From a virus (Duplodnaviria > Heunggongvirae > Uroviricota > Caudoviricetes): a DNA stretch of 7,299 nt. The notes beneath the pieces are model-generated. The model searched no databases, was not told the DNA's origin, and was given only the letters and a program-made list of their open reading frames with translations. Shown here one piece after another: positions 4,107-7,299 of the stretch. Position 1 is the stretch's first letter; the number at the start of each line of letters is the position of its first letter. The stretch covers positions 1 through 7,299 of the IMG/VR virus record IMGVR_UViG_2639763115_000004. One strand, 5' to 3'. A program made the position numbers and the translations under genes.

Positions 4107-4703
4107 ATGACCACTATTACCAAAGAACGTATTGAATTGTTCATTAAAAATCCGCTTGAAAACGGACTTACCCGTGGCGAACAAATGGAACTGGCACGAA
4201 TTGCTCTGGCATCGCTGCAACGCGAACAGATTCGCCACGAGCATGCCAAATGGTCTGACTCCACATTTGGCTGCGTTGGCCCCATTGGTCCGCTGAAACA
4301 TCTCTCAAAAGAGGCACTGGAAGCCGCAGCCGAACCAGACGATCTTAGCGAGTGGGCTGATATGCAGTTTCTGTTGTGGGATGCACAGCGCCGTGCTGGC
4401 ATCAGCGATGCTGAAATTACCGCTGCTATGGAAGATAAATTGAAGATCAACATGGAGCGCCAGTGGCCTGAGCCAAAAGATGGTGAGCCTCGCTTGCACA
4501 TTAAAGAACCCGGCAACTCTCCGGTAATTCCGGATGGTTGGGTTATGGTGCCGAAGGAGTTAACCCCGGAAATGATGAGAGCCGTTCAGATTAGAAGTGA
4601 GCTTGGAGGGTATGCCACTTCCAATCTATCTGGTGCATACAATATGTTTTCTGAGTTCTGGAATGTTGCTGTCTCAGCTGCGCCTAAGGTGGATGATTTA
4701 TGA
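4107..4703 (+). CDS. Putative MazG-like nucleotide pyrophosphohydrolase (DUF550-like N-domain, DUF551-like C-terminal region)
   Basis: AAGGAG at 4095-4100; segment EALEAAAEPDDLSEWADMQFLLWDAQRRAGISDAEITAAMEDKLKINMERQW resembles the all-alpha MazG/NTP-PPase motif (EExxE ... ELGD-like ... KL.xNxxR). Confidence 0.55.
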   Translation: MTTITKERIELFIKNPLENGLTRGEQMELARIALASLQREQIRHEHAKWSDSTFGCVGPIGPLKHLSKEALEAAAEPDDLSEWADMQFLLWDAQRRAGISDAEITAAMEDKLKINMERQWPEPKDGEPRLHIKEPGNSPVIPDGWVMVPKELTPEMMRAVQIRSELGGYATSNLSGAYNMFSEFWNVAVSAAPKVDDL

Positions 4704-5002
4704 ATCTATATCGCTGCCCATTCTGTGGTTCCACTGTGCTTAACATCGGATACTCATTCAGTATCAGAGGGAAAATGCGCTATGTGTCATGCAAATGTGG
4801 TGCCCAAGGACCAGAAAAACGAACTAAATCTGAAGCGATTTCTTCATGGAATAGTCGAATGAAAGTATGGGTTTATGATCCAGAAACCATATTAAACGCT
4901 GAAGAGCGCAGGAGAACGGAAGTCTATATTCATAACCTTAATGAAGATGGATTTACACCAGTGCTTGTAAAGGCTACTCCGCAGGAGGTTAACCATGGCT
5001 AA
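4700..5002 (+). CDS. Lar-family putative restriction-alleviation (anti-restriction) protein with a C-terminal extension
   Basis: ATGA overlap with the upstream stop; N-terminus MNLYRCPFCGSTVL...CKCGAQGP...AISSWNSR has the CPFCG plus CxC plus A..WN.R signature I associate with Lar-family zinc-ribbon proteins. Confidence 0.55.
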   Translation: MNLYRCPFCGSTVLNIGYSFSIRGKMRYVSCKCGAQGPEKRTKSEAISSWNSRMKVWVYDPETILNAEERRRTEVYIHNLNEDGFTPVLVKATPQEVNHG

Positions 5003-5064
5003 CCTGCAACTTGCCGTCAAAGGTGAATAACAATCCTCGCACTCGCGGGGATTTCTTTTATCTG

Positions 5065-5090
5065 AACTCGCTACGGCGAGTTTTGTTTTA
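5065..5090 (+). terminator. Putative intrinsic terminator after the Lar-like gene
   Basis: Stem aactcgc (5065-5071), loop tacg, stem gcgagtt (5076-5082), then T-rich ttgtttta. Confidence 0.45.
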
Positions 5091-5102
5091 TGGAGATGAT
5101 AA

Positions 5103-5270
5103 ATGCACTTCCGAGTCACAGGTGAATGGAATGGAGAACCATTCAACAGAGTTATCGAAGCAGAGGACATCAACGACTGCTATAACCACTGGATGATATG
5201 GGCGCAGATAGCGCATGCAGACGTAACCAATATTCGAATTGAAGAACTGAAAGAACACCAAGCCGCCTGA
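5103..5270 (+). CDS. Small hypothetical prophage protein (55 aa, MHFRVTGEWNGEPFNRVIEAEDINDCYNHWMIWAQIAHADVTNIRIEELKEHQAA)
   Basis: GGAGA 7 nt upstream of the ATG at 5103; followed at once by a terminator hairpin. Not in the ORF track (under 60 aa). Confidence 0.5.
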   Translation: MHFRVTGEWNGEPFNRVIEAEDINDCYNHWMIWAQIAHADVTNIRIEELKEHQAA

Positions 5271-5283
5271 TGGCGGTTTTTTA
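5261..5283 (+). terminator. Putative intrinsic terminator
   Basis: ccgcc (5263-5267), loop tgat, ggcgg (5272-5276), then tttttt (5277-5282); overlaps the stop codon of the 55-aa gene. Confidence 0.55.
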
Positions 5284-5293
5284 TTGCCTGATT

Positions 5294-5308
5294 TGCAGGT
5301 TCGATTCC
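5294..5308 (+). other. tRNA-derived fragment: 15 nt identical to the T-arm 5' half of tRNA-Arg(CCU) argW (tgcaggttcgattcc)
   Basis: Exact 15-nt match to recalled argW, with degenerate similarity a few nt upstream; the rest of the tRNA is absent. Confidence 0.4.
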
Positions 5309-5327
5309 CTATTCGGAGATAGCACTC

Positions 5328-5528
5328 ATGCAACACGAACTACAGCCTGATTCACTGGTTGATTTGAAATTCATCATGGCCGATACTGGCTTCGGTAAAA
5401 CCTTCATCTACGACCGGATTAAGTCCGGCGACCTGCCAAAAGCCAAAGTTATCCACGGACGAGCAAGATGGTTATATCGTGACCATTGTGAATTCAAAAA
5501 TAAGCTCTTAAGCCGCGCTAATGGGTAA
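5328..5528 (+). CDS. torI: AlpA-family excisionase / recombination directionality factor (TorI-like, 66 aa)
   Basis: SLVDLKFIMADTGFGKTFIYDRIKSGDLPKAKVIHGRARWLY fits the AlpA/Xis winged-helix pattern; length and position next to an argW attR core fit KplE1 TorI as I recall it. GGAGA 8 nt upstream. Confidence 0.7.
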   Translation: MQHELQPDSLVDLKFIMADTGFGKTFIYDRIKSGDLPKAKVIHGRARWLYRDHCEFKNKLLSRANG

Positions 5529-5544
5529 AATAGCGGGTAAAATA
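5523..5544 (+). repeat. Tandem direct repeat gggtaaaata x2 (5523-5532, 5535-5544), candidate RDF or integrase arm-type binding sites
   Basis: Two exact 10-bp copies at a 12-bp period spanning the torI-like stop codon, about 60 bp from the att core. Confidence 0.35.
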
Positions 5545-5602
5545 TTTCTCACATCTAAAAAATATCATTCCAATCAATCCCCTGCCGCGCCAAGTAGATG
5601 TC

Positions 5603-5617
5603 TGCAGGGGACACCAT
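5603..5617 (+). other. Putative attR core: terminal 15 nt of tRNA-Arg(CCU) argW (ctgcaggggacacca)
   Basis: Exact match to the recalled argW 3' end including CCA; no intact tRNA upstream, so this is a duplicated att core rather than a gene. Confidence 0.6.
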
Positions 5618-6000
5618 TTATCCTTCCAACGAAATCCACCTTCCCCGCGTAAAAGTTGGGTTTGGCAGCACACTTGCCCTAAATCTACTCATTTTCCCTG
5701 CAACAGGTTGAAATCTCAGCACTGTGCGGCGATGACTAAACAGCCCCGGGCCTGGCAATGTATTCATCACACAGAATCCTGATCGCGAAATCTGGCTTGA
5801 CTCGATACTTCACTCCGCAATGCATTCCTTGATGGATTAGCAGGCCCGTGATACACGGGACAGGTCGCTGAATTACGACAATTTCCTGGAAATCAGCGAA
5901 CCGCGTATCCTGAGTACATTTGAGCGACTGTTCCAGAACATGAATGAGGCGTTTGGATTAGGCGATTATTAGCCGCGCTAAGCATTTTGGTATTATTATT

Positions 6001-6040
6001 TTCCGGTTGAGGGATATAGAGCTATCGACAACAACCGGAA
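6001..6040. repeat. 9-bp inverted repeat ttccggttg / caaccggaa with a 22-nt spacer, 12 bp downstream of the cscB stop
   Basis: Perfect reverse-complement arms at 6001-6009 and 6032-6040; no U-tract on the cscB transcript side, so not a canonical terminator. Confidence 0.3.
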
Positions 6041-6051
6041 AGAGTTTACGT

Positions 6052-7299
6052 CTATATTGCAGAAGGTACAGGCGTTTCCATCACCATTTGCTCACGCTTT
6101 TTACTCAGGAAGAAAATGCCAAATAACAACATCAGGCAGACAATACCCGAAATTACGAAGAAAACCGTCTGGTAACCTGCATGGTCAAAAAGTATTCCAG
6201 TCGGCGTTGAAAGCAACACAATCCCCAACGAACTAGCAATTTGAAAACCAATCAGAAAGATCGTCGACGACAGGCGCTTATCAAAGTTTGCCACGCTGTA
6301 TTTGAAGACGGAAATGACACACAGTGGAACCTCAATGGCATGTAACAGCTTCACTAATGAAATAATCCAGGGATTAACGAACAGTGCGCAGGAAAGAATA
6401 CGCAACGCCATAATCACAACACCGATAAGTAATGCATTTTTTGGCCCTACCCGGTTAACAAAGAAAGGAATAATGGCCATGCACAGCGCTTCGAGTACAA
6501 CCTGGAATGAGTTGAGATAACCATACAGGCGCGTTCCTACATCGTGTGATTCGAATAAACCTGCATAAAAAACAGGAAAGAGCTGTTGATCAAAAATGTT
6601 ATAGAAAGACCACGTCCCCACAATAAATATGACGAAAATCCAGAAGTTTCGATCCTTGAAAACTGCAATAAAATCCTCTTTTTTTACCCCTCCCGCATCT
6701 GCCGCTACGCACTGCTGATCCTGATATTTAAAACGCATGTTGATCATCATAAATACAGCGCCAAATAGCGAAACCAACCAGAAGTTGATATGGGGACTGA
6801 TACTGAAAAATATGCCAGCAAAGAACGCGCCAATCGCATAGCCAAAAGATCCCCAGGCGCGCGCTGTTCCATATTCGAAATGAAAATTTCGTGCCATTTT
6901 TTCGGTGAAGCTATCAAGCAGACCGCAGCCCGCCAGATACCCCAAGCCAAAAAAGAGCGCCCCCAAAATTAGACCTACAGAAAAATTGCTTTGCAGTAAC
7001 GGTTCATAAACGTAAATCATAAACGGTCCGGTCAAGACCAGGATGAAACTCATACACCAGATAAGCGGTTTCTTCAGACCGAGTTTATCCTGGACGATGC
7101 CGTAGACCATCATAAATAGAATACTGGTAAACTGGTTGACCGAATAAAGTGTACCTAATTCCGTCCCAGTCAACCCTAGATGTCCTTTCAGCCAAATAGC
7201 GTATAACGACCACCACAGCGACCAGGAAATAAAAAAGAGAAATGAGTAACTGGATGCAAAACGATAGTACACATTTCTGAATGGTATATTCAGTGCCAT
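6052..7299 (-). CDS. cscB: Sucrose:H+ symporter, LacY-family MFS oligosaccharide permease (CscB-like, 415 aa)
   Basis: Complete 415-aa ORF with its start codon at the window edge; multi-TM hydrophobic protein whose N-terminus MALNIPFRNVYYRFASSYSFLFFISWSLWW and length match CscB as I recall it; clear LacY-family similarity. Confidence 0.8.
   Translation of the reverse strand: MALNIPFRNVYYRFASSYSFLFFISWSLWWSLYAIWLKGHLGLTGTELGTLYSVNQFTSILFMMVYGIVQDKLGLKKPLIWCMSFILVLTGPFMIYVYEPLLQSNFSVGLILGALFFGLGYLAGCGLLDSFTEKMARNFHFEYGTARAWGSFGYAIGAFFAGIFFSISPHINFWLVSLFGAVFMMINMRFKYQDQQCVAADAGGVKKEDFIAVFKDRNFWIFVIFIVGTWSFYNIFDQQLFPVFYAGLFESHDVGTRLYGYLNSFQVVLEALCMAIIPFFVNRVGPKNALLIGVVIMALRILSCALFVNPWIISLVKLLHAIEVPLCVISVFKYSVANFDKRLSSTIFLIGFQIASSLGIVLLSTPTGILFDHAGYQTVFFVISGIVCLMLLFGIFFLSKKREQMVMETPVPSAI

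Follow-up and report, generated by a model that had tools for sequence, protein, structure and literature searches.

Why should the end of an excisionase gene coincide with a pair of perfect direct repeats, and which protein, if any, would read them? In the window, by which we mean the whole stretch of DNA analysed (7,299 nt), the decamer GGGTAAAATA is found twice without mismatch on the plus strand, at 5523-5532 and 5535-5544, the two copies being separated by the dinucleotide GC (...cgcgctaat GGGTAAAATA gc GGGTAAAATA tttctc...). The torI-like open reading frame ends in AAT GGG TAA, and its TAA stop (5526-5528) falls inside the first copy. A sequence-only reading of this DNA had described exact 10-bp direct repeats overlapping the stop codon of a torI-like gene, and both statements are borne out. 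It had also put their spacing at about one helical turn; the direct arrangement stands, but the period does not, since the start-to-start distance of 12 bp corresponds to ~1.14 turns. The features needed to place the repeats are the following.

5328-5528, plus strand: torI-like gene encoding a recombination directionality factor (RDF, excisionase) of 66 aa, from the list of open reading frames and a match to PDB 1Z4H.
5523-5532, plus strand: repeat 1, GGGTAAAATA, predicted distal P-arm arm-type site for IntS, with its conserved core TGGGTAAA at 5522-5529.
5535-5544, plus strand: repeat 2, GGGTAAAATA, predicted proximal P-arm arm-type site for IntS, with its conserved core GGGTAAAA at 5535-5542.
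5602-5617, plus strand: att core (attR copy), CTGCAGGGGACACCAT, an exact match corresponding to the 3' end of argW, a tRNA-Arg gene.
6052-7299, minus strand: csc-type sucrose/oligosaccharide permease gene, in the host flank (5618-7299).

The identity of the gene is clear. Its 66-aa product aligns over residues 1-66 of 66 with the 'Tor inhibition protein' of PDB 1Z4H (E=6.6e-43), and this full-length match identifies it as TorI; the same gene carries the torI annotation in K-12 and in many E. coli genomes. A Pfam search of the protein at E<=0.001 gave no family match.

The surrounding DNA is equally recognizable. The 16-nt att core of KplE1 is CTGCAGGGGACACCAT (PMC2951348), a sequence with a single exact match in the window and none in shuffled sequences. 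It begins 57 bp 3' of repeat 2, so that the repeats occupy the interval 57-79 bp upstream of the core, and their nearness to an att core, as originally proposed, is confirmed. From torI to the core, the sequence is very similar to that of attR in the K-12 prophage CPS-53/KplE1 and of attP in HK620. Compared with these two, a few substitutions lie between the repeats and the core (for example, TATC for CACC and CCGCGCC for CTGCTTC), whereas the repeats are untouched and the 22-nt repeat block is identical in the window, K-12 and HK620. Downstream of the core, a csc-type oligosaccharide permease gene is found instead of the dsdC of K-12; the host flank thus differs, being the csc (sucrose) locus, and the repeats are unaffected. 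The torI-to-core match, followed by the csc flank after the core, shows that the locus is where a KplE1/HK620-type prophage residing in the tRNA-Arg gene argW meets the host DNA on its right side (attR). Of 5426 complete E. coli genomes, 1404, about a quarter, have the same attR arm. The best-matching complete genomes are only ~95% identical to the window over positions 4700-6100, so that the DNA may come from an atypical Escherichia lineage.

The identity between the attR of the window and the attL of K-12 or the attP of HK620 extends over 21 nt, 5602-5622 (CTGCAGGGGACACCATTTATC), against 16 nt for the K-12 core, because the host flank here begins with TTATC. When positions 5602-6060 were searched for a relic integrase or P' arm (blastn with K-12 and HK620, tblastn with IntS), only this 21-nt core identity was recovered.

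Could the repeats simply be a coincidence, without function, in A+T-rich intergenic DNA? Their mere existence is not a strong argument to the contrary: an exact 10-nt direct repeat with a spacing of 10-14 bp arose in 56 of 2000 windows simulated under a first-order Markov model (~3%), and the window itself contains a second one, at 494. Tandem Repeats Finder, at a score of at least 30, did not list the GGGTAAAATA repeat, because 1.8 copies of a 12-nt unit are too short for it. Chance being only moderately unlikely on these figures, the significance of the repeats must come from their context and their conservation. Elsewhere in the window, a cluster of short tandem repeats occupies positions 470-600 (AGGGGGTA twice, a 14-nt unit 2.6 times and a 12-nt unit 2.8 times). 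It sits in a replication-initiator-like open reading frame on the minus strand (125-946) and resembles the ori iterons that are embedded in the O genes of lambda-type phages.

Conservation was assessed on 24 loci encoding TorI relatives (60-100% identity), taken from one-genome-per-species contigs, and on the attP regions of four phages (of Escherichia, Klebsiella and Erwinia). Together they yielded an alignment of 21 distinct 85-mers from about a dozen genera, including Escherichia, Klebsiella, Erwinia, Serratia, Citrobacter, Pantoea, Edwardsiella, Arsenophonus and others. Every locus that retains the gene end carries G(G/A)GTAAA-N5-G(G/A)GTAAA, beginning 3 nt upstream of where the last sense codon ends. 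Among the 21 distinct sequences, information content is highest at TGGGTAAA (5522-5529) and at GGGTAAAA (5535-5542), near zero in the four bases between these cores, and low downstream. The pattern TGGGTAAA-N5-GGGTAAAA is near-invariant and held in a fixed 12-bp register, while spacer and flanks drift. Judging from this alignment, the conserved unit is 8 nt long, and identity over the full 10 nt is a feature of the Escherichia lineage. Conservation in related prophage att regions had been named in the sequence-only reading as a test of the repeats, and in these 21 relatives they are near-invariant.

The first of the two cores, TGGGTAAA, spans the last sense codon of torI together with its TAA stop, and the codons concerned are hardly free to vary: GGG serves as last codon in 20 of the 21 relatives and GAG in the remaining one, and all 21 use TAA as stop. 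The residue just before the last codon, on the other hand, may be N, D, A, S or G. Such frozen synonymous choices show a constraint acting on the DNA and not on the protein. Near-invariance in a fixed register, between variable flanks and across about a dozen genera, excludes chance for practical purposes, and the same motif recurs on the other att arm (see below); we give next to no credence to a fortuitous, functionless repeat.

A constraint on a different protein might also be imagined. In the annotation of HK620, a small gene, hkaB, begins at an ATG at this place, and a 43-aa hkaB-like open reading frame is present in the window (5521-5652; MGKIAGKI...), so that the repeats would be part of its coding sequence and would encode a GKI peptide repeat. 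However, this frame spans the recombination core, and its C-terminus would therefore change upon integration. Moreover, 3 of the 21 relatives have CTG or GTG in place of its ATG, although the DNA motif persists in them, and the sequence 3' of the repeats is poorly conserved. A Pfam search with the 5521-5652 frame returned no family. We consider it extremely unlikely that the repeats are kept for the sake of this peptide.

If the constraint bears on DNA, the question becomes which DNA-binding protein imposes it. IntS, the integrase of this module, has arm-type P' sites that all contain TAAA, the P'1 site overlapping the -10 element of the PintS promoter (PMC2951348). In the attL of K-12, beside intS, we found four copies of the motif: CGGGTAAAAAGT (over the -10), TGGATAAAATAA, and the inverted TGGGTAAAATTA and TGGGTAAAAATC. 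The repeats of the window, TGGGTAAAATAG and CGGGTAAAATAT, are the same motif as these P' copies. More precisely, GGGTAAAA equals the four P' copies in the attL of K-12, HK620 and PK5074, and repeat 2 has the same sequence as the motif CGGGTAAAA of the P' arm in HK620 and in the K-12 attL. In strain PK5074, whose attR does not differ from the window over 128 nt, the same four copies recur in attL beside intS. In the GenBank record of HK620 (AF335538), an identical stretch of 23 nt, TGGGTAAAATAGCGGGTAAAATA, is annotated 'repeat_region attP', as are the repeats of the P' arm.

The motif is likewise found on each arm of attP in the four phages, in 2 + 4 copies, and Klebsiella phage Chronis has a variant, AACGAGTAAAA, that is identical on the two arms. 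The outermost sites reach into the genes: on the P side, ATGGGTAAA overlaps the stop codon of the RDF gene (at 5522-5530 in the window), and on the P' side the inverted TTTACCCAT overlaps the ATG of the integrase gene. Between the RDF stop and the integrase ATG, the four phages (attP regions L002-L005) have 248-249 bp, and attP fits exactly into the space between the two recombination genes.

Functional data on attR place the repeats in the same light. A published 135-bp attR substrate, amplified with primer attR-IHF2 (CTCTTAAGCCGCGCCAATGG), recombines in vitro (excision). The primer corresponds to positions 5505-5524 of the window with one mismatch, and 18 bp of the substrate precede repeat 1. 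The repeats consequently lie inside the DNA that is sufficient for attR function, near its outer edge. The window itself is without intS and attL, and the HK620 integrase was analysed: it contains the Arm DNA-binding domain PF13356 (Arm-DNA-bind_3; E=5.8e-25), as expected for a heterobivalent integrase reading arm-type sites. Direct IntS footprints on the two P-arm sites are reportedly to be found in the work of Panis of 2007 (JBC) or 2010 (Virology), and the binding-site mapping of the 2007 JBC study is said to have covered attR as well.

Taken with the motif identity, this leads us to propose that the repeats are very probably P-arm arm-type sites for IntS in attR (in attP for the excised phage). 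Of the readings put forward from sequence, that of integrase arm-type sites is hence supported, the motif being that of the IntS P' sites of attL and being conserved on both arms of attP; so is the suggestion of an attR architecture encoded within the gene end, as the repeats are part of a published, functional attR substrate.

The other protein to be considered is TorI itself. Under this hypothesis, the repeats would be binding sites of the excisionase, serving torI autoregulation or an RDF-directed bending of attR. Their location at the end of the RDF gene is suggestive, and according to a general statement of PMC7498355 RDF sites are commonly direct repeats about one helical turn apart. However, the known TorI sites are of another kind and lie elsewhere: five sites, with cores GTTCG, GATCG and GTCCG, form two blocks, all on attL (PMC2951348). 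We recovered five TorI cores at the published positions in the K-12 attL (L001 392, 412, 455, 465 and 475). The block coordinates given in PMC2951348, counted from the position of the intS ATG, map onto these GTTCG/GTCCG/GATCG cores, an agreement that validates our mapping of the K-12 attL sites. The same article, speaking of attL, credits Panis 2007 with having mapped where IntS and TorI bind (PMC2951348). By contrast, neither strand of the window contains GTTCG, GATCG or GTCCG between 5480 and 5660. The repeats belong to the P arm, in attR, and the TorI sites to the P' arm, in attL, which is also the substrate of the TorI EMSAs in the literature; finally, the motif of the repeats equals that of the IntS P' sites. 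That the repeats are TorI sites is therefore very unlikely, and the earlier proposal of RDF binding or autoregulation is not supported. That proposal had called for a comparison with the mapped sites of the KplE1 attR; made with the mapped sites of attL, the comparison turns out positive for the arm-type sites of IntS and negative for those of TorI.

Since P'1 on attL doubles as the -10 element of PintS (PMC2951348), a role in transcription must be weighed too. The TAAAAT hexamers of the repeats differ by one mismatch from TATAAT, and could be -10 elements reading out of torI across attR or, in the excised phage, into int. Yet they are without a -35-like hexamer at 16-18 nt, and a scan for sigma-70-like promoters on both strands of 5200-5750 found none. 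In addition, GGG is conserved as strongly as TAAA, which a -10 element would not need. A promoter function for these hexamers is scarcely credible.

As predicted arm-type sites of IntS, the repeats would belong to a well-described class. The IntS sites of the argW module of KplE1 (CPS-53), HK620 and Sf6 (Panis, Mejean and Ansaldi 2007; Panis et al. 2010) are the closest parallel, with the same 16-nt core and, in the P' sites, the same motif. Arm sites are bound by the N-terminal domain of heterobivalent integrases, which bridge arm and core in the intasome (PMC2951348). In phage lambda, the arm-type sites of Int (P1, P2 and P'1-P'3) are likewise short repeats of the att arms, distinct from the core sites. 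The present system departs from lambda in its consensus (GGGTAAAA), in the number of sites (six, 2 + 4, against five), and in its two P-arm sites being adjacent, direct and 12 bp apart. Furthermore, it is the P' (attL) arm and not the P arm that carries the RDF sites, and attP separates the RDF gene from int, instead of the two lying side by side. P22 and other lambdoid phages that target tRNA genes also integrate at the tRNA gene's 3' end and have multiple arm repeats. Here, compared with P22, the integrase family is P4-like with a PF13356 arm domain, and the site layout is different as well. P22-type att sites of tRNA-targeting lambdoid phages are listed in 10.1101/2023.11.06.565760.

Two further elements are situated between the arm sites and the core or at its edge.

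5572-5584, plus strand: candidate IHF-like site, AATCAATCCCCTG, one mismatch to WATCAANNNNTTR, a weak consensus match.
5578-5611, no strand: inverted repeat, TCCCCTGC (5578-5585) and GCAGGGGA (5604-5611), around the left edge of the core.

The candidate IHF-like site AATCAATCCCCTG lies between arm sites and core; the match itself is not significant, as the window contains 9 matches to this consensus against 10 expected by chance. The stretch ATCAA..CCCCTGC is kept in relatives. One functional IHF site reportedly exists on attR, according to the 2010 Virology study of Panis. An inverted repeat equivalent to TCCCCTGC/GCAGGGGA is found in the attP of the Klebsiella and Erwinia phages, in columns that are invariant, and it may mark core-type binding of the integrase.

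The other side of torI also bears traces of argW. An exact 16-nt copy of the argW T-arm, TTGCAGGTTCGATTCC, is present at 5293-5308 of the window, 20 nt upstream of the torI ATG, and again at L001 10276-10291 and L002 1466-1481. In the tRNA gene (L001 355-370), this T-arm segment directly abuts the att core. With TTGCAGGTTCGATTCC upstream and the core downstream, the torI gene and the P arm are thus bracketed by two consecutive pieces of argW. The copy is limited to the Escherichia lineage, being absent in the Klebsiella and Erwinia phages and in other genera, and may be what remains of an older attP identity of greater length. Positions 5260-5279 hold a terminator-like hairpin with a T-run, and TTGCCTGATTTGC (5284-5296) comes directly after it. 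The GenBank record of HK620 annotates TTGCCTGATTTGC as a cII-binding box in a 'phage integration' promoter that precedes the RDF gene; the box has the spacing TTGC-N5-TTGC.

How might the two P-arm sites be used by IntS? This tyrosine integrase, heterobivalent and of the P4 family, serves the argW recombination module of KplE1, HK620 and Sf6. By analogy with the lambda paradigm and with the KplE1 literature, two IntS protomers would dock their N-terminal arm-binding domains on the two GGGTAAAA sites. With the DNA bent between these sites and the core, presumably by IHF, the catalytic domains of the same or of partner protomers could then reach the core sites. The two P sites and the four P' copies would together assemble the integrative and excisive intasomes, and TorI would direct excision from elsewhere, through its five GTTCG-type sites on the P' arm (attL). 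The overlap between repeat and torI stop would then reflect the tight packing of attP.

A regulatory side effect can be conceived. With IntS on the distal P site, the final codon of torI and its stop would be covered; this could affect the completion of torI expression and, in the excised phage, any read-through into intS that starts at the torI promoter and crosses attP. We regard such an effect as very improbable. If true, it would add a second layer of cross-talk from integrase to RDF, beside the known repression of PintS by IntS and TorI on the other arm.

The repeats are of an already known kind, already annotated in a public phage record, and in this respect the finding is ordinary, with little significance beyond correct annotation. 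As predicted IntS sites, they mark the outer boundary of the functional attR in a very common E. coli prophage family, and the intact P arm kept by this prophage is consistent with its being still excisable. The case is mildly instructive in that the last codon and the stop codon of one gene appear frozen by the DNA-binding site of another protein.
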